A stretch of DNA of 52,401 nucleotides from Escherichia phage vB_EcoM_4HA13. Shown piece after piece: positions 2,631 through 17,040 of the stretch. The position numbers were made by a program, and so were the translations under genes. Where the stretch lies: sequence record NC_049466.2; one strand, written 5' to 3'. Numbering within the stretch: position 1 is the first letter of the stretch; each line of letters begins with the position of its first letter. The notes below the pieces were generated by a model. That model did not search any database. It saw nothing but the letters and a program-made list of their open reading frames with translations, and was not told where the DNA came from.

Positions 2631-2634
2631 TATT

Positions 2635-2660
2635 GGGAGCTTCGGCTCCCTATTCTTGTT
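2635..2660 (+). terminator. Intrinsic terminator candidate (GGGAGC-UUCG-GCUCCC hairpin then U-rich tract)
   Basis: Perfect 6-bp stem with UUCG tetraloop followed by tattcttgtt. Confidence 0.55.
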
Positions 2661-2700
2661 CCAATTAATCTCAGAGCTGTGTTCAATATTGGAACTCAAC

Positions 2701-2723
2701 TGTGACATTAGTTGAAATTGAAG
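2701..2723 (+). promoter_or_regulatory. Conserved motif copy P1 (GACATTAGTTGAAATTGAAG)
   Basis: Same core ACATTAGTTG as the other copies; about 45 nt after the terminator. Confidence 0.45.
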
Positions 2724-2740
2724 TAACAGAATACGGAGAA

Positions 2741-3624
2741 ATATTCTGCATGTCATTTTTTATTGGTGTACAACAATATTAGCATGACAACTTGAAGCAC
2801 AGTGTGATTATGTTTGGCAACATAGAACTCCCTGAGTTTGGCCGCTCAAAGTTCCCGTCACCATGTAGAGAGTAAGAATAAGATTCGAAACTGTTGTTTC
2901 AACTAAGCATGACTCATCCCTAAAGAAGCTGGGACAGCTCATGTAGTACCCTGCTGTTTCCGAGAGTTGCAACAGGTTAAGCATGTCCAATTGTTCCAAT
3001 ATTGTCACAGTCCTATTATAAAGGCCCACCCACAAGCCGGGACTATTTAGACATGATTGGAACTTTTGGTTCATGCGATTGTAGAGAAAGTAAATTCGGT
3101 AAGAGAGCGAATACCGGACATTGTTCCGATTACAGGTATCGCCTACGCCCCGAAATTGAGCAACAAATATTGTGACAGTATTGCCTCAACAATGGCATGT
3201 GTTGCGTAGCGACAATCGTACAATATCCGCATGTAAGAATGTGCCAAACTGTTAGGGGACTAATCACCTCGAAGATACGGTGAACGTGGCAATCTAGCAT
3301 GTGGATTCGTTACGAAGATTGTGACAATAATCAGCATGTAATATTGTAACAGTATTGTGCTAACCCGCATGAATACTGGCTCTCAGCCAAGCGAAGGCTT
3401 TATCATTGCATGTAATATTGTGACAATATTGGGATTTTTAAAAGATTTATTCTTTTTATTTATTCTTTATTGTCGGTTTACAGCACTTGCTCAGCGAACT
3501 TTGAATGTGCCAAATACGTTCGAAATTGCTGTGAGTGTGGAAACCAATTAGTTATAAATGTGCATGTGATATTGTGACAATATTCTCCATTTGGCGGGGA
3601 GTGAAGTTGCAATATTGCATGTCA
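2741..3624. repeat. Array of related about 25-bp repeats built around the palindrome AATATTGT-G-ACAATATT, often preceded by GCATGT
   Basis: Copies near 2998, 3166, 3318, 3334, 3406-3433, 3560-3587 and 3609; the 3414-3430 copy is a perfect 8-1-8 inverted repeat. No credible ORF in 2631-3837. Confidence 0.6.
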
Positions 3625-3837
3625 TTCTTAGTCTAATTGCATGAAAGATAGGGCTAATTCTGTATGAATATTGGATTCAACAGGTGTCAATGTTGATACA
3701 GAATAAGCTCCAATTTATTCAACTTGATAGTTTGGCACGTATTGTGTCACATACTCCCTGATGCTTTAAGGTGGATTAAGGAACGAAAAAGCCTCCACAA
3801 CCGTCTGACGGAGTTTAATTTAAATTAGGAGTTTAAA

Positions 3838-4092
3838 ATGGCTATTGTAAAACAATGCATGTTCCAAGACCTTCTCGATGGTCAAGTATTTAAGCACAAA
3901 GACAAACGCTGGATTAAAGTTGCAGAATCCGGCGATTACAATGCTGTAAGTTTCCACAATTCAAATCTAACTTGTGATTTTGGATTATCCTGTATTGTTG
4001 AACTTGAAGTTTCGCTTGAGCCATCTGAATGGGATTTAGTTGACGATGAAGAAGTGCAACGTTCAATCGAAGGTTACAAGGAGAATTTCTAA
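3838..4092 (+). CDS. Hypothetical protein
   Basis: ATG with AGGAG RBS; first gene after the repeat region. Confidence 0.55.
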   Translation: MAIVKQCMFQDLLDGQVFKHKDKRWIKVAESGDYNAVSFHNSNLTCDFGLSCIVELEVSLEPSEWDLVDDEEVQRSIEGYKENF

Positions 4093-4331
4093 TGCGCTAT
4101 CAACTTGTTCAACTACCTGTAACTGAGTCCTTATCATCATTTGTTCTTCTGGACAATGTAACAAAGGTTTGCAAACTACGTGACCAATCAATTTACCCAG
4201 AAGATGGTGGCAAATTGGTGTGGAAGAATGCTGCTCATAACGATGCAGTATTAAACCGTGTTATGACCTATGGTGTTGTAGTTGCAGAAGCACAAGACCC
4301 GAAATTCCTTGCTGCTCATGGATTTTCATAA
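4092..4331 (+). CDS. Hypothetical protein
   Basis: Start overlaps upstream stop (translational coupling pattern). Confidence 0.5.
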   Translation: MRYQLVQLPVTESLSSFVLLDNVTKVCKLRDQSIYPEDGGKLVWKNAAHNDAVLNRVMTYGVVVAEAQDPKFLAAHGFS

Positions 4332-4528
4332 TGAAGTGGATTGTGTATTACCGAATCATTGGCGGTATTGATGCAGTTATTCGATACCGCAATCTTGCCA
4401 TTATGCAACATGACATTGAAATGGAAAAGGATAAACAATTCGACTACATTAACGCATGTACAATCTGTGATGATGGTAGTGAAGAGATTGTGTACTCTAG
4501 TGTTGAAGAAATATTAAATGCGAAGTAA
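4331..4528 (+). CDS. Hypothetical protein
   Basis: ATGA overlap with upstream gene. Confidence 0.45.
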   Translation: MKWIVYYRIIGGIDAVIRYRNLAIMQHDIEMEKDKQFDYINACTICDDGSEEIVYSSVEEILNAK

Positions 4529-10253: not shown

Positions 10254-10383
10254 TTCCAAGCTGGAACCTTGATGTTCCAAGCGGGTTTGTAACTCGTTTG
10301 GGACTTCTTCTGACCCTTCGGCATTAGTAGGAAGTGCATCGGAGAAGTTTCCAAATCAATTAAAGCCACAACTGCATTATACA

Positions 10384-10500
10384 GAATGTGTCAAAATTCT
10401 GTCAAGAAATATTCCAAATATTCCACGCCAAAGGAATAGCGGAATAATAAATAATTTATTCTAATTATTATTAAATTTTGGAATATTGGAATAATATTGA
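10384..10500. repeat. AT-rich iteron-like cluster (AATATTCCA / TGGAATA units)
   Basis: Tandem and inverted copies of AATATTCCA directly upstream of motif copy P3. Confidence 0.5.
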
Positions 10501-10520
10501 AACATTAGTTGGAAGAAAGA
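10498..10520 (+). promoter_or_regulatory. Conserved motif copy P3 (GAAACATTAGTTGGAAGAAAG)
   Basis: Intergenic; followed by a long hairpin. Confidence 0.5.
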
Positions 10521-10526
10521 AACAAC

Positions 10527-10614
10527 ATCTTGAAGCATTCTTGTAACTTGGTAGTCCGTCCGGCGCCGTGACGTGTGAGAATGTTCGAATCATTCTACAA
10601 GAGTGCTTCAAGAT
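10527..10614 (+). ncRNA. Long imperfect hairpin with tRNA T-arm-like apex (GAATG-TTCGAAT-CATTC); candidate RNase III site or tRNA-like element
   Basis: 19-bp inverted repeat 10527-10545 / 10596-10614 with one mismatch; apical 5-bp stem with 7-nt loop TTCGAAT. Confidence 0.4.
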
Positions 10615-11327
10615 GGAATGTTTCCATCAATGTCCCGAGTATCTTGGTATCCGTTAGCAAGAACTCACAACCTAAACTTACAGTATAATCTGGCAGGTTA
10701 TCCACATAGGTTTTACGACATGTAGGGTTATTGATTTAGTTTAGACGCTATATCAATCGAACTTAGTACGAATAAGCAAGCTGATAGGGCTGAATAATTA
10801 GAGGTAATGACCTCATGCTTATGATTGTCGGTTCACAAAATTTGTATGGCTCATGTTAATTGGTTTTGAAGGAAGTTCAACTCACAATTATAGACCTTGA
10901 GCCAACATCAAATTGCTCTTATAGAGATACAGGAGATACGTATCACCGCTATTTGTTTCGCCTGACTAACGAAACAGAGAATGTGACAAAGGCTAGTCAC
11001 TGGAGTGTCGGCCTGTATCACTATAAGGGTAATTCCTGCAAGCCAGCCAGCGCCAGCCAAGCGCTACGGCATAAAGAGTGTGATTATATGGGTGGTGGTT
11101 TGCGTGTCTCAGACGTTACGGTGTTGCGCACAATGGCGCATCCTCAGAGTTCCTGTATCGCTTGAGTTGGGGCGCAAGTCTTCACCCACATAATCATACA
11201 GAATTGGAACAAACGCTTGGCAGTGGCTTGAATTTCGGGCTATTTGTGCAAGTCTGTGGTCTACTTTCAGTGGGCTAAAAGATAGAGAAACGTCACATTA
11301 ATTGAATCGAAAATTGGAGACATTCCT

Positions 11328-13089: not shown

Positions 13090-13110
13090 ATCGATCTGGT
13101 CGGCGGCGCA

Positions 13111-13134
13111 AGTAGGGTAGATGCCCTACTTTAG
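13111..13134 (+). terminator. Weak terminator-like hairpin (AGTAGGG-loop-CCCTACT)
   Basis: 7-bp stem then a short TTT; U-tract is short. Confidence 0.3.
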
Positions 13135-13471
13135 CAAAGTCACTTTGAATCCCATTCCTAATTGGAGTGGGCTTCAATTTGTGCATAATCCAAACACCAT
13201 TACATGAGCTTTCGACGGTAAGCAATGTTGGGAAATTTGTTGTGTACAAATTGAAGTAGTTTTCTGAGTCTTACGACGGGCCTAAACTGCCTGAAGTTAT
13301 TGTGACTGTTTTATTCATTTAAAATAAATGCAAACGATTCTGAAATGCGTGTAGCAGCTTAATTAAATTTAAGAAGCTCTCCGTGGTCTTTCGATTCCAT
13401 GTAAACAAATTCGACGCATTGTGTCTCCGTGATGTGATTAATAAAACGGAGTTCAAATTAAAGAGGTATCC

Positions 13472-13903
13472 ATGAACAAGTTAACAGCCTATAACATTGC
13501 AAAGTTGAGGTCTGAAATAAATTGGACTGTAGACAAAGATGGCTACAGGTGTGCTACTGTAAATGGGTACACAGTCAGGAGGCATATATTAAACTTTTAC
13601 ATAAAGTTTGGTTGGCTGCCTGAATATGTAGACCATATTGACAATACTCCAGGAAATGATTGGCCTGAAAACTTAAGAGCAGCAACCGCATCACAAAATG
13701 CCTGCAACTCTAAAATAAGGTCAGATAACACTAGCGGTGTTAAAGGAGTATCTTGGGATTCCTCAAGAAACAGATGGAGAGCAAGAGTAAAGGTCAATGG
13801 CCAAACTCAATCAGTGGGAAGATTTGAGACAATCGAAGAAGCCACAGAAGCTATCCATTCTGCAAGAAAGGTTCTACACAAACATTTTGCCCGCTGTGAT
13901 TAA
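13472..13903 (+). CDS. Free-standing HNH homing endonuclease with AP2-like DNA-binding domain
   Basis: HNH core VDHIDNTPGNDWPENL...SQNACN; AP2-like GVKGVSWDSSRNRWRARVKVNG; codon usage is AT-rich compared with neighbours. Confidence 0.65.
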   Translation: MNKLTAYNIAKLRSEINWTVDKDGYRCATVNGYTVRRHILNFYIKFGWLPEYVDHIDNTPGNDWPENLRAATASQNACNSKIRSDNTSGVKGVSWDSSRNRWRARVKVNGQTQSVGRFETIEEATEAIHSARKVLHKHFARCD

Positions 13904-14312: not shown

Positions 14313-14444
14313 GCAAGTTGCCTGAGAAATAGGATATTCTGGACCATCAATCCGCTGGCAATACAGGCACTTAATAAGTGTGTCTATCCTAATTCTACAA
14401 GCCTCGCAGTTTTCAGTCTGCGATATCAAAACTGTCCAAACAAC

Positions 14445-14545
14445 GTCTGCTGGACTCCGAATTGTAGCGGAGGTATTGGGTACGTCCATCTGCCTCGCAG
14501 ACAATACCAATATGTCACCGGGTTCAAGTCCCGGAGCAGGCACCA
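14445..14545 (+). ncRNA. tRNA-like element (acceptor stem, T-arm, encoded ACCA); not a canonical cloverleaf by eye
   Basis: GTCTGCT pairs with AGCAGGC; T-arm CCGGG-TTCAAGT-CCCGG; ends ...AGCAGGC-A-CCA. The region between D-arm and T-arm is about 45 nt, too long for a standard tRNA. Confidence 0.3.
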
Positions 14546-14748
14546 AACAATAGGGATTTCCATGTATGCTGTCAAATGTTGCAACGTTTCTGACAGTGGT
14601 AAGATGGCCTCAGAAAGAAAGTATAAGTATGCAGAACGGTTCGATTCCGTGAATCCCTCCAAATTAGGTGCAGTACCTGTTACGACGACAAGCTCAGATA
14701 ACGCAAAAGGTTCGTATCACACTGCACCATTCTATTACAGGAATTACA

Positions 14749-15003: not shown

Positions 15004-15233
15004 AGAAATCTTACGCGCCTATTGTTGGTATTCTTGGTATCCTTTTGATTTCGTGTTCGACACCGAGCGTGCCTCCAAACAAGTTAGTAAATGGATATTG
15101 CGATATTGCAAGTCCAATCCTACTGCTGAAATCCGAAATTCCTTTGCTCTCATTGGGGAGCAAACAACAAGTTCTTGCCCACAATAAAATGTGGAAAGAA
15201 AAGTGTTCGACGGAACTTACCCGACAAAAGTAG
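15000..15233 (+). CDS. o-spanin (Rz1-like outer-membrane lipoprotein)
   Basis: Signal peptide with lipobox LISC, Pro-rich mature part; ATGA overlap with i-spanin. Start could alternatively be the GTG at 14988. Confidence 0.5.
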   Translation: MKKSYAPIVGILGILLISCSTPSVPPNKLVNGYCDIASPILLLKSEIPLLSLGSKQQVLAHNKMWKEKCSTELTRQK

Positions 15234-16117
15234 TGACGTCAACAAATGGTATCAGCTAGACGGTGGTGTAAAAGACTGACCGTGGCGACGACGCCATATT
15301 GCTCTGGGCATAACAGTTGAAATTGCTGCCTCCTAGGATTGGAACGTCCCGCTACACATCGTTAGGGTGAGAAGGTTAGTCCACCGATACAAAGGCTTGC
15401 GGCTTACACCGGCCAAAGAAGAAAACGGTGTGCTTGAGAACGAAGCTCCGATGACCCCGTAAAGTCAACGTAATGAACACGAGACGTTCAGGTGTCCTCT
15501 TCCTAAAACAGAACGACGAGAACAAACTCGTAATCAGTTGCGGCAACGTGGTCCGGTCAAAGAACAATGAGCCACAGGTTTCCAAGCATCCGTAAAAGCA
15601 TGGCGTAGTTGACGCGTTAAGCACGAATAGCCCACGTTACGGGCCACAGAATTTGGAACTTGGTATCTGTAATGCGTCGTATTACGAATCATGAAAGCCG
15701 CACATAAGAGTGTGTAGACACATGGACTTAATAGAGGCAGATAAAATAACCAAGTTCCATACCGAAAACCTCCTGCTGGTTATTCTTCCAGATTAATAAA
15801 AGAAATAAGAAGCGTCTGGCATAGTGTAGCGATACACCTTAGTTGCGCTGATTGTGAAGTGTCGAAAAGGTTTCGGCCTGTTTGGGTTTCTCCTCATCCC
15901 GAAGTTTGAGTAATCGACTACTCAATGTTCCTAATCACATGAAATATGCAAGGCAGGGTTCTTGATAAAGTTTACTAATTCTTTATCAGGCGGGTTTAGC
16001 GATTTTCCCGGAAGGTCTCCCATAATGCGGAATTGTATATTGACTAAGCCGAAATAAATATACTCAGTTTCCAGTCTGAACAAAACTGGAATCAAATTAA
16101 CTTTAACTGGAGTTGTT

Positions 16118-16387
16118 ATGAACAGAAATTACGAACTTGTTATCCCACCTGCACCACAGCCAGAAATGGTATTGCGTGATAAAATTGCTACAATTGTTTA
16201 CGAACAAATACTTGTAGACAATAAAATGCGGGATATTGTGTGTATTGATGAAGCATCTTTGAAACATATCTCAAAGGGTATCGCCAAGATTGCACATGAT
16301 TTTGCCGATGACTTTATGCGCGAACGTTATGAACGTATGTGTGTTAAAGCAACTGGTATTAACCTCGAAGATTTAGTAAAGAAATAA
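16118..16387 (+). CDS. Hypothetical protein
   Basis: GGAG RBS; first gene after the 884-bp non-coding island. Confidence 0.5.
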   Translation: MNRNYELVIPPAPQPEMVLRDKIATIVYEQILVDNKMRDIVCIDEASLKHISKGIAKIAHDFADDFMRERYERMCVKATGINLEDLVKK

Positions 16388-16422: not shown

Positions 16423-17040
16423 ATGGGTTCGGACTTAACAGCAGTTAATGCTGCACGAGTCTCTTATGGTGCGGAGTCTAAAACGCTAACAAAACGCGAC
16501 TCCCACCTTCTGTCGTTTCTGGCAGAACATGAGCACGTAACACCTTTCCGCCACGCAGCAGTAACATTACGCTGCAAAGCGCCAATCTTCTTGGCGCGAC
16601 AATTGGGCAAGCATCAGGTTGGCTTTAGTTGGAACGAGATTTCTCGCCGCTATAAAGATGGTGATGCAATCGAAGTTGAATGCTACGTTCCTGAGTATGT
16701 TATGGCACGTCCTGATAAACTTATGACTCAGTGTGCAAGACATATGCCAGCAGATATTGCCGACGAAATGCGCATGTATATAAACAATGCTGCTAAGTCA
16801 GCAGTTCGCGAATATCAGGCATTAATTGGATTTGGAGTTGCACCAGAGCAAGCTAGAATGGTGTTACCTCAATCAATGATGACTGAATGGATTTGGACTG
16901 GCTCTCTCTATGGTTGGGCATCCATGTACAATCAGCGTTCCACTGAACACGCTCAATATGAAGCTCGCCTGTTTGCAGAAGAAGTTTCAAAAGTCATGTC
17001 AGAACTTTTCCCAATTTGCTGGGCGGAGTTGATTAAATAA
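16423..17040 (+). CDS. thyX: ThyX-like flavin-dependent thymidylate synthase (tentative)
   Basis: N-terminal AARVSYG and an ...S-x-NE-x-S-RRY segment resemble ThyX motifs; the canonical RHR is not intact. Confidence 0.5.
   Translation: MGSDLTAVNAARVSYGAESKTLTKRDSHLLSFLAEHEHVTPFRHAAVTLRCKAPIFLARQLGKHQVGFSWNEISRRYKDGDAIEVECYVPEYVMARPDKLMTQCARHMPADIADEMRMYINNAAKSAVREYQALIGFGVAPEQARMVLPQSMMTEWIWTGSLYGWASMYNQRSTEHAQYEARLFAEEVSKVMSELFPICWAELIK

Follow-up and report, generated by a model that had tools for sequence, protein, structure and literature searches.

A conserved non-coding gap before the replication genes of Escherichia phage vB_EcoM_4HA13 and other Cleopatravirinae holds a covarying element, best read as a new structured RNA family

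What does a phage keep in a stretch of 884 nucleotides (nt) that carries no gene? The question is raised by Escherichia phage vB_EcoM_4HA13 (NC_049466.2; 52,401 nt), the whole sequence of which is called the window here. The phage is a myovirus like phiEcoM-GJ1 and belongs to the subfamily Cleopatravirinae of the Chaseviridae; the + strand carries every gene of the window. The gap in question runs from the stop of the o-spanin open reading frame (ORF) to the start of an ORF of 89 amino acids (aa), at 15234-16117 on the + strand, as defined by the ORF list and the syntenic gaps of relatives. A preliminary description, made from the sequence of the window, had placed an 884-bp island here between the spanins and the replication module and proposed a structured RNA, an origin or a degraded mobile element. 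Its coordinates hold (ORF list, PHROGs, Pfam ThyX), and of its three guesses the structured RNA is strongly supported by covariation. We found in the 3' part of the gap a multi-helix, pseudoknotted RNA domain, called element E (15783-16063, +), which is made up of H1, P2a, P2, H3, P3, H4, H5, H6, H7, H8 and S2. The best reading is that E is a new structured RNA family, not a GOLLD, ROOL or other Rfam member. The evidence for a structured RNA is unusually strong for a purely computational case.

Conservation and base pairing of element E

The comparison with relatives established the conservation, base-pairing constraint, strand, single copy and taxonomic range of E. The gap is at the same position in all sampled Cleopatravirinae, after the spanins and before a small ORF and ThyX (or an equivalent gene) and the primase/helicase. 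Its length is about 520-1520 nt, and it has no + strand genes. The relatives examined for the gap were phiEcoM-GJ1, Bp10, SKA49, Mangalitsa, PYps3T, PYps23T and Faunus, and further PM1, pEa_SNUABM_27, Navette and Myduc; some loci are given by L numbers below. In the Nefertitivirinae phage BUCT696, the corresponding region is densely coding. The nearest relative in the collections searched was the IMG/VR contig L004 (ThyX protein identity 85%), and the ThyX of Faunus, phiA050 and the Carltongylesvirus phages is ~70-74% identical to that of the window. When the window was compared with the relatives' loci by BLAST, the conserved blocks of the gap were 84-98% identical at the nucleotide level, versus ~66-75% for the flanking genes. 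The block that corresponds to E (~15800-15966 in BLAST) was shared with most relatives at ~79% identity. The comparison with related phages that the preliminary description had proposed showed a region that is both conserved and covarying; far from being absent or unconserved in relatives, parts of it outdo the flanking genes in conservation.

The model of E was derived by cutting sixteen lineages at invariant anchors, with 46-88% pairwise identity among distinct ones. The gap was aligned in the window, L004, phiA050 and Faunus, then in twelve and then in seventeen sequences. In the aligned E, invariant single-stranded segments lie between hairpins that keep their positions while their stem sequences are wholly different, and the stems can be read directly from the unaligned sequences. 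E was modelled in two parts by the covariance models R1 (core) and R2 (3' domain), with H1 in neither. R1 has 161 positions and 35 pairs and was built from twelve seed sequences; L007, Navette and pEa_SNUABM_27 were held out.

In the Infernal alignment of the core, 97.2% of 646 pair cells were standard pairs, versus 25-45% when the 3' partners were slid by 1-3 columns. Both sides had changed in 26 of the 35 pairs, and none of 500 shuffles reached any observed measure. RNAalifold, run on the core alignment, independently predicted the same six helices, with compensatory changes in 27 of its 35 pairs. P2a, which lies on columns unpaired in the model, was 98.6% paired (4-71% when slid), and three of its four pairs were compensatory. 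The 3' domain in R2 was 86.5% paired, versus 25-55% slid, and the pairs of H7 and S2 were all compensatory.

The core, all of whose coordinates are on the + strand, is closed by the long-range helix P2, which joins CUGGCAUA at 15816-23 to UAUGCAAG at 15945-52 and is 100% paired. Compensatory variants of P2 are GGUAUA/UAUAC in the phiA050 clade and GGAAUA/UAUUC in Myduc. P2a (GCGU 15812-15 / GCGC 15845-48; variants CGC/GCG, CGC/GUG and UGC/GUA) crosses P2, so the core contains a pseudoknot. The domain opens with the hairpin H1 (UUCUU/AAGAA, 15783-87 / 15800-04), the stem of which becomes GCCU/AGGC, GUCU/AGGC, UGCAU/AUGCA or UACGU/ACGUA in relatives. Next to the 5' strand of P2 stands H3 (15824-15837), read as GUGUA-GCGA-UACAC with a GNRA tetraloop. 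It has five stem variants, among them CCGUA/UACGG, CUGGU/ACCAG, CCGG/CCGG and CUGGA/UCCAG, and 4/5 of its pairs are compensatory. P3 (UGUGA 15853-57 / UCACA 15935-39) encloses H4-H6 and takes the forms UGGG/CCCA, UUAAUAC/GUAUUAA, UGUUGCG/CGCAACA and UAAAUG/CAUUUA.

Inside P3, H4 (15863-15879) is a short hairpin that varies between phages; in the window, it could adopt either of two registers, CGAAA/UUUCG or AGG/CCU. Relatives have more than 10 different H4 stems, with UUCG and GAAA tetraloops among them, and all five pairs are compensatory. H5 (UUUGGG 15881-86 / CCCGAA 15898-903) is 99% paired and five of six pairs are compensatory; at one position, U.G is the commonest pair. Its 11-nt loop carries an invariant CUCCU(C/U) at 15890-95, which is similar to the anti-Shine-Dalgarno end of 16S rRNA. 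The variable hairpin H6 (UGAGUA/UACUCA, 15907-15924) has compensatory changes in 7/7 model pairs and is absent in L004. It is followed by a near-invariant core of 37 nt, AUGUUCCUAAUCACAUGAAAUAUGCAAGGCAGGGUUC (15925-15961), which holds the 3' strands of P3 and P2 and is 95% identical even in the Pectobacterium phages PM1 and PP101. Between H6 and H7 the near-invariant core reads AUGAAAUAUGCAAGgcAGGGUU.

The 3' domain begins with the variable hairpin H7 (UGAUAAAG / CUUUAUCA, 15963-15988), which is 95% paired and compensatory in all seven pairs. H8 (CGGG 15991-94 / CCCG 16007-10) is 74% paired in the Infernal alignment, owing to a register shift, and a CAGG/CCUG variant was recognised by eye. The hairpin S2 (GUAUAUU 16035-41 / AAUAUAC 16057-63) holds the conserved loop motif GCCGAAAU and is compensatory in 6/6 pairs, with variants TGATTC/GAATCA, GGTC/GACC and others. 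Eight of ten lineages show pairing between the opening bases of the S2 loop and bases just upstream (S1: CAAG/CUUG, GGAAU/AUUCC, CGGU/ACCG, CAAAG/CUUUG, GAAAG/CUUUC), which gives an H-type pseudoknot. The support for S1 is moderate, with a combined p of ~0.02 under an independence assumption that is not strictly valid. The window can form all the helices of the E family, whose features are P2/P2a, P3, the CUCCU(C/U) loop of H5 and the core AUGAAAUAUGCAAG..AGGGUU. The several short hairpins of the preliminary description were thus an understatement: ~11 covariation-supported helices stand in the 3' 280 nt, and at least four more lie 5' of them.

The constrained molecule appears to be an RNA from the + strand, to which the frequent G.U pairs, the tetraloops and the restriction of matches to the + strand point. 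The U.G pair in H5 would be an unpairable C.A on the opposite strand. The hairpin loops of E include GCGA, UUCG and GAAA tetraloops, and GNRA and UUCG tetraloops are RNA-stabilising motifs.

R1 and R2 found exactly one significant copy per genome, on the + strand only and always in this gap; the copy of the window scored 164 bits with R1 and 87 bits with R2. The held-out loci were recovered full-length by R1 (L007, E = 1.4e-10; Navette, 6.6e-5; pEa_SNUABM_27, 4.4e-4), and Y2-type loci were found at E values of 2e-6 to 2e-5. The match in Myduc was marginal (E = 0.11), but it was taken as a true homologue because it shows the CUCCUC loop and a compensatory variant of P2 that is its own. E was present in every sampled genus of Cleopatravirinae. 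R1 did not find it in two Nefertitivirinae loci, nor was it found beside related ThyX in 75 IMG/VR contigs, and 5,426 complete E. coli genomes gave no match. A scan of bacterial genomes with a loose core pattern returned at least 120 stretches, and none of the first 100, a contig of a Citrobacter metagenome-assembled genome included, was convincing with R1. On present evidence, E is confined to Cleopatravirinae.

Exchangeable modules in the 5' part of the gap

The first 550 nt of the gap behave as a string of shorter, exchangeable RNA modules, with E as the constant unit. Module F (15254-15291, +) has a hairpin of ACGGU 15260-64 and ACCGU 15279-83, with the compensatory forms AUGGU/ACCAU and UUGGU/ACCAA, and its copies in PYps3T, L100 and Bp10 are 87-97% identical. 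F is 3' of module A in L100 but 5' of A in the window, which shows that the module order is not fixed. Module A (15295-15347, +) was shared with most relatives, at 84-98% identity in 17 of the 25 relatives' loci searched, versus ~70-75% for the flanking genes. It forms a hairpin of GGCA 15307-10 and UGCC 15327-30, followed by an exposed CCUCC at 15329-33, and its stem is GACA/UGUC in L106 and GGUA/UGCC in L004.

Module B is a variable insert (15336-15481, +; BLAST match up to 15511) that has counterparts in Bp10, TH37 and SKA49, and only there, which are 92-96% identical. The genes of those coliphages are ~72% identical, which suggests that B has recently been exchanged laterally. There are few substitutions among the four copies, and one double substitution breaks a predicted pair. 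In Faunus, L004, L100 and L106, a different module, B', occupies the place between A and C; its stems covary, and 9 of the 52 pairs that RNAalifold predicted on the four B' sequences are compensatory. Judged by eye, B' is apparently pseudoknotted.

Module C (15482-15538, +) consists of the CU-rich GUCCUCUUCCUAAAACAG and a hairpin of ACGAG 15516-20 and CUCGU 15527-31. It is 80-96% identical in L100, L106, Faunus, phiA050, L108, L004 and pEa_SNUABM_27, with partial or shorter matches in five more loci and a compensatory variant AGAG/CUCU. Module D (15604-15653, +) has an invariant hairpin, GCCC 15630-33 / GGGC 15641-44. It is 85-94% identical over 46-50 nt in L108, phiA050, L007 and L004, and shorter exact partial copies occur in L106 and L100. 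After D, a predicted, perfect long-range stem of 11 bp (15654-64 / 15749-59, +; inverted repeat I6) surrounds two small hairpins and is also found in the minimum free energy (MFE) fold. This stem is specific to the window except for its 3' part, which aligns with L004. Exposed CU-rich motifs are found in A, in C and before H1 (15329-33, 15496-503 and 15769-73).

Most lineages have A followed by variable sequence, then C and D, and a second variable stretch or a tRNA before E. In L004, a tRNA-Cys stands between D and E and starts one base past module D; in PM1, a tRNA-Cys lies between a C-like block and E. A weak tRNA call in Navette ends 12 nt before E, and Myduc has a tRNA-Arg in the gap. Repeated regulatory sites were ruled out as the identity of the conserved gap blocks, since self-BLAST of each block found no second copy within the window.

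Identity and possible function of the RNA

The scan with Rfam covariance models, which the preliminary description had also proposed, found no known family in the gap. Rfam 15 (4227 models) gave no match in the window at gathering score. At E ≤ 10 over 15100-16250, there were only four chance-level matches (E 0.17-5.4), namely to a microRNA, two RNAs of the small nucleolar type and a Neisseria small RNA. The relatives (12 searched at gathering score, four at permissive E) gave only tRNAs and chance-level matches. The GOLLD model had no match in the window, in the gap (E ≤ 10) or in relatives, and the ROOL model had none in the window, gap or relatives. Riboswitch, ribozyme and intron classes of Rfam 15 did not match the gap even at E ≤ 10. 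ARAGORN found no tRNA or transfer-messenger RNA (tmRNA) in the window, and no member of the tRNA clan matched the gap at E ≤ 10. No published description of the E RNA was found in the literature searched, and the ICTV profile of Chaseviridae mentions no non-coding RNAs besides tRNAs (PMC12842549). There is a substantial chance that E is a new functional class.

Two known RNAs resemble E most in kind. In GOLLD, which phages encode, the 3' region is conserved and the 5' region variable, and the linker sometimes contains tRNAs (PMC12286853). Like E, it is a large, elaborate fold with pseudoknots and without an assigned function (PMC12286853). The gap has a conserved 3' part, a variable 5' part and tRNAs nearby, and this is a resemblance of layout only. 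There are also differences. No match to the GOLLD model (RF01998) was found even at E ≤ 10; the conserved domain of E is ~280 nt in a gap of 884 nt, versus >800 nt in GOLLD; E is carried by virulent enterobacterial myoviruses, GOLLD by prophages of Lactobacillales, marine and mycobacterial hosts; and tRNAs adjoin E in a minority of lineages. ROOL, which occurs in phages and prophages and frequently close to tRNA islands, is a complex multi-pseudoknot RNA for which neither a protein partner nor a function is known (PMC12286853). GOLLD and ROOL are both characterised by a homo-oligomeric cage built of RNA only. E is like ROOL in genomic context and architecture, but it does not match the Rfam model, and its size, helices and hosts are others.

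Smaller phage RNAs offer partial parallels. The stable RNAs C and D of T4 (species 1 and 2) are ~120-140 nt long, lie beside tRNA genes and are processed from the same precursor as the tRNAs. They are, as E would be, orphan RNAs near tRNA genes in a virulent coliphage, but the window itself has no tRNA in its gap. To our knowledge, they are not pseudoknotted, and we know of no sequence relationship to E. The leader pseudoknot of T4 gene 32 is an H-type translational operator tens of nt 5' of the ribosome-binding site, among genes of DNA metabolism. Similarly, the S1/S2 pseudoknot stands 50-170 nt before the next ORF in most relatives. The 89-aa ORF, however, has no family match and is not known to be a single-strand DNA-binding protein; moreover, the pseudoknot is only the last part of the 280-nt E, and S1 is missing in the window. 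The intercistronic RNase III sites of T7 are single hairpins of ~50-60 nt with an internal loop. They share with E the position of a structured RNA between genes of long transcripts of a T7-like polymerase, whereas E has multi-way junctions, pseudoknots and invariant cores.

As a working interpretation, and with somewhat less confidence than an even balance would allow, we believed that E is a processed, stable RNA particle that acts in trans. Host RNases might cut E out, alone or with the 5' modules; RNases P, E and III would process neighbouring tRNAs and hairpins. Once released, E would be a stable, compact RNA particle of the GOLLD/ROOL kind. Its CUCCUC loop and the other CU-rich motifs might bind a purine-rich sequence of the Shine-Dalgarno type or a ribosomal component, and E could thereby act on translation during the shift to replication. 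Such an interaction with the Shine-Dalgarno sequence or the ribosome is speculation. The trans-acting reading is favoured because the layout is GOLLD-like, the 5' modules are shuffled, tRNA processing would free E wherever a tRNA is present and the downstream gene is inconstant. Tentatively, E and the 5' modules together can also be seen as a new class of ornate phage RNA, a counterpart of GOLLD and ROOL in enterobacterial phages that would form a three-dimensional particle, possibly an oligomer. Such a particle might carry an activity of its own, such as binding to the ribosome or to Shine-Dalgarno sequences, metabolite sensing or catalysis.

Large, intricately folded RNAs without an assigned role are rare, and the roles of the phage-borne GOLLD and ROOL are still unassigned, partly because both the hosts and the phages concerned are difficult to manipulate. 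E is conserved across a subfamily of virulent phages of E. coli, Yersinia, Erwinia, Pectobacterium and Proteus. It is tractable, being a single copy at a defined locus of a 52-kb virulent E. coli phage, with a covariation-backed model and an invariant CUCCUC loop.

Several points weigh against a trans-acting particle or against the fold behind it. The release of E by processing and its stability are conjectural, as are the ends of the RNA, and the contact with the ribosome or Shine-Dalgarno sequence is drawn from resemblance of sequence. The constant place of E, 54-143 nt 5' of the next ORF, fits a cis-acting leader equally well. Most lineages have no tRNA in the gap, and tRNAs adjoin E in a minority only. 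Neither the window nor L004 has the S1 pseudoknot; both have a longer S2. The main counts of pairs depend on alignments made to fit the model, which is mitigated by P2a, the slid controls, RNAalifold and the held-out sequences. The folding energy is unremarkable compared with shuffled sequences (z: gap, -0.43; complement of the gap, -1.14; E, -0.41), and the MFE fold of the single sequence, although it recovers several of the hairpins, lacks the long-range helices. It is the comparative evidence that speaks for structure; the folding energy gives no support either way. Finally, the searches found neither a promoter nor a terminator dedicated to the RNA. With a weight matrix, no promoter-like motif was found in the gap, the nearest sites being 12633 upstream and 16817 downstream; sigma-70 sites were fewer than in shuffles, and there was no plausible + strand terminator in the gap.

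The promoter-like motif is the 'putative phage promoter' of the phiEcoM-GJ1 record, a 20-nt motif CATTAGTTGGA... with a consensus of ~ACATTAGTTGGAWNTGA. The promoters annotated in phiEcoM-GJ1 were used to build the position weight matrix. It gave ~11 sites in the window, all on the + strand (120, 2703, 6088, 10319, 10500, 11868, 12302, 12633, 16817, 21698 and 42328), which are mostly intergenic; the weak site at 16817 is inside ThyX. According to the ICTV profile, promoters of Chaseviridae have not been identified (PMC12842549). No promoter-like motif was found between E and the next gene in the loci of twelve relatives. This motif, the only one of promoter type known for these phages, is missing between 12633 and 16817, and a terminator is missing from the gap; read-through from 12633 into the replication genes therefore probably transcribes the gap, as part of a long transcript of the phage polymerase. 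This transcript would pass through an ORF of 119 aa, a gene for a homing endonuclease, an ORF of 98 aa, the spanins, the gap and the replication genes, and E would physically be an intercistronic part of a long precursor. A block conserved 3' of E in GJ1, Faunus and phiA050 (TAAYGUUCGU..ACGUCAGG) was considered as a promoter class and ruled out, since it is single-copy.

The strongest alternative, which we regard as possible but rather doubtful, is that E is a cis-acting leader of the replication operon (89-aa ORF, ThyX, primase/helicase and DNA polymerase) and controls its translation, stability or processing. It could be a riboswitch-like sensor of a nucleotide, folate or flavin, an operator for a phage protein, for which the T4 gene 32 pseudoknot is an example of autoregulation, or a protective 5' structure left after cleavage. 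In every genus, E lies on the gene strand at the head of the replication module, always 54-143 nt 5' of the module's first ORF, and neither a promoter motif nor a terminator separates it from the replication genes. Its multi-way junctions, near-invariant unpaired bases and pseudoknots are aptamer-like, and in most lineages an H-type pseudoknot is found just 5' of the ribosome-binding region. In the H5 loop, CUCC is complementary to GGAG, the Shine-Dalgarno sequence. Between E and the ribosome-binding site, the window has a further hairpin, H10 (UUCCAGU/ACUGGAA, 16069-16091, +; repeat list and MFE fold), with the covarying counterpart GUUGGU/ACCAAC in L004, and for its 5' strand UUCCAGU there are two possible partners, ACUGGAA and the Shine-Dalgarno ACUGGAG. 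However, the spacer varies in length and sequence, and no alternative pairing is conserved, this option of H10 being absent in L004. The gene 3' of E also differs between lineages: L007 has no ORF within 209 nt, Navette has an extra 196-aa ORF and Myduc has other genes. Furthermore, ~280 nt and ~11 helices are large for a known riboswitch class, and no riboswitch or leader family matched even at E ≤ 10. Cleavage at the upstream tRNA in L004, PM1 and possibly Navette is compatible with a leader but is no argument for one.

It is improbable that the gap is a replication origin, or that it yields a structured pre-primer transcript comparable to those of the T7 primary origin or ColE1 RNA II. The gap is directly 5' of the replication module, and the phage has a T7-like RNA polymerase, a primase/helicase and a DNA polymerase; the ColE1 system needs a folded transcript. 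However, the features of a T7-type origin or of an iteron/DnaA-box origin were not found. The gap has no promoter-like motif, no AT-rich unwinding tract (GC 0.445 versus 0.428 in the window), and no iterons or tandem repeats, only short two-copy matches. Pseudoknots and ~11 covarying helices far exceed the needs of priming, and the constraint is pairing on one strand. The gap at 10254-10859, with its tandem motifs at 10319 and 10500, is more T7-origin-like. The origin proposed in the preliminary description is thus disfavoured.

We consider it very unlikely that small protein genes have been overlooked in the gap, or that it is what is left of a mobile element, with conservation at the protein level or as a relic. 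Records do annotate ORFs here (Mangalitsa gp39, Faunus gp33 on the minus strand, and PYps3T ORF039 and ORF040). A 52-55-aa 'MVPINK...' ORF starts inside E in Carltongylesvirus, and Bp10 fuses it to the small downstream ORF. Module B has recently been exchanged, as it appears, and the 5' modules do show cassette-like exchange between lineages. However, no ORF is kept across lineages, and an ATG at the MVPINK position is lacking in the window. The longest + strand ORF within the gap has 40 aa (15473-15595), in agreement with the preliminary description, which had seen none of 60 aa or more. Minus-strand ORFs of 82 aa (15376-15624), 54 aa and 52 aa are present. The frame of the longest is broken by stops and a frameshift in Bp10, TH37 and SKA49, in a stretch that is 92-96% identical. 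For this reason, and since the + strand carries all other genes of these phages, it is ruled out as a gene. The preliminary description was right to call it implausible, but it is not really of low complexity. Substitutions preserve base pairs, not codons. As for the degraded mobile element, no ORF remnants were found, E is single-copy and vertically conserved across genera, and the homing endonuclease genes of these phages are intact and located elsewhere.

A constraint on hairpins of + strand single-stranded DNA, as in a primosome or packaging signal, can hardly be upheld: covariation alone cannot separate RNA from DNA of the same strand, but G.U (G.T) pairs occur often, at one position as the commonest state, the loops are of the GNRA and UUCG types, the strand is the transcribed one, and the genome is double-stranded with terminal repeats (PMC12842549), E being ~16 kb from the window start.

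Flanking genes, annotation and other non-coding stretches

The two ORFs upstream of the gap, with stops at 15233 (o-spanin) and 15003, are Rz-like spanins (PHROGs). Downstream, the 89-aa ORF starts at 16118 on the + strand and has no family match, and ThyX is at 16423-17040 (Pfam). The ribosome-binding region of the 89-aa ORF comprises the Shine-Dalgarno GGAG at 16109-12 and the ATG at 16118-20 (16109-16120, +; sequence and ORF list). Immediately 5' of this Shine-Dalgarno, UUAACUUUAA is found at 16097-16106, which is identical to the 'epsilon' translational enhancer of the T7 gene 10 leader. H10 does not look like an intrinsic terminator, as no U-run follows the hairpin. The preliminary description had called the gap GC-richer than its surroundings. 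This is true of its 5' half (0.479), but the 3' structured element (0.399) is below the window value.

Several database records deserve comment. In Myduc (L093), the position of ThyX, directly 3' of the E-like element, is taken by a gene (3928-4497) annotated as a putative nucleotidyl transferase of the CCA-adding type. 'Staphylococcus phage Pel53' is a Chaseviridae sequence close to the coliphages in the gap, and its host label S. hyicus looks doubtful; 'Aeromonas phage phiA050' has a gap of the Cleopatravirinae type, and its record has no family-level taxonomy (records PP952070.1 and PP763568.1 cover Pel53 and phiA050). GenBank records place small coding sequences on or near the E RNA (L087 3452-3827, L088 2911-3286, L090 2593-2787 and L003 3378-3509), which include the 55-aa 'MVPINK...' ORF starting in the 3' domain of E and minus-strand ORFs. 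These coding sequences over E are probably mis-annotations. In the PYps phages, the small downstream ORF is labelled 'tail tape measure protein'. The annotation can thus be corrected where doubtful small genes, some with misleading names, lie across E in several GenBank records.

With gaps defined as at least 250 nt uncovered by + strand ORFs of at least 70 aa, the window has nine on the + strand, and 15234-16117 is the second-largest. Other large ones are 2631-3837 (1207 nt) and 10254-10859 (606 nt), both matched in phiEcoM-GJ1. The latter, with its two tandem promoter-like motifs, is closer to the layout of the T7 primary origin than 15234-16117.

The region from 13.1 to 16.1 kb as a whole looks like an island of non-coding RNA; the ~3 kb between the early and replication genes would then be no mere spacer. 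Inside this island, a free-standing homing endonuclease gene of the HNH-AP2 type (Pfam HNH_3 and AP2) lies at 13472-13903; the HNH genes of relatives are elsewhere, for example between ThyX and the primase in phiEcoM-GJ1. Just 5' of the spanins, a second conserved non-coding gap (14313-14667) is 88% identical to Faunus over ~260 nt and has a 46-nt core that is 96-98% identical to PM1 and phiA050. The equivalent region of phiEcoM-GJ1, Bp10, ST32 and SKA49 carries a tRNA of 95-97 nt, and the window has no tRNA there. This tRNA is annotated as Arg that 'may contain an intron', and ARAGORN calls it Leu(CAG). ARAGORN found no tmRNA at 13255-13418 of the window, in the gap at 13090-13471. This locus gave weak matches to permuted tmRNA and alpha_tmRNA (E = 0.036 and 0.13), and similar weak tmRNA matches stand at the syntenic place in L007 (1660-1839), PYps23T (L088, 1050-1195) and Navette (L092, 112-259). 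The recurrence of the same weak family in four divergent genomes suggests a conserved tRNA-like or tmRNA-like RNA at 13255-13418.

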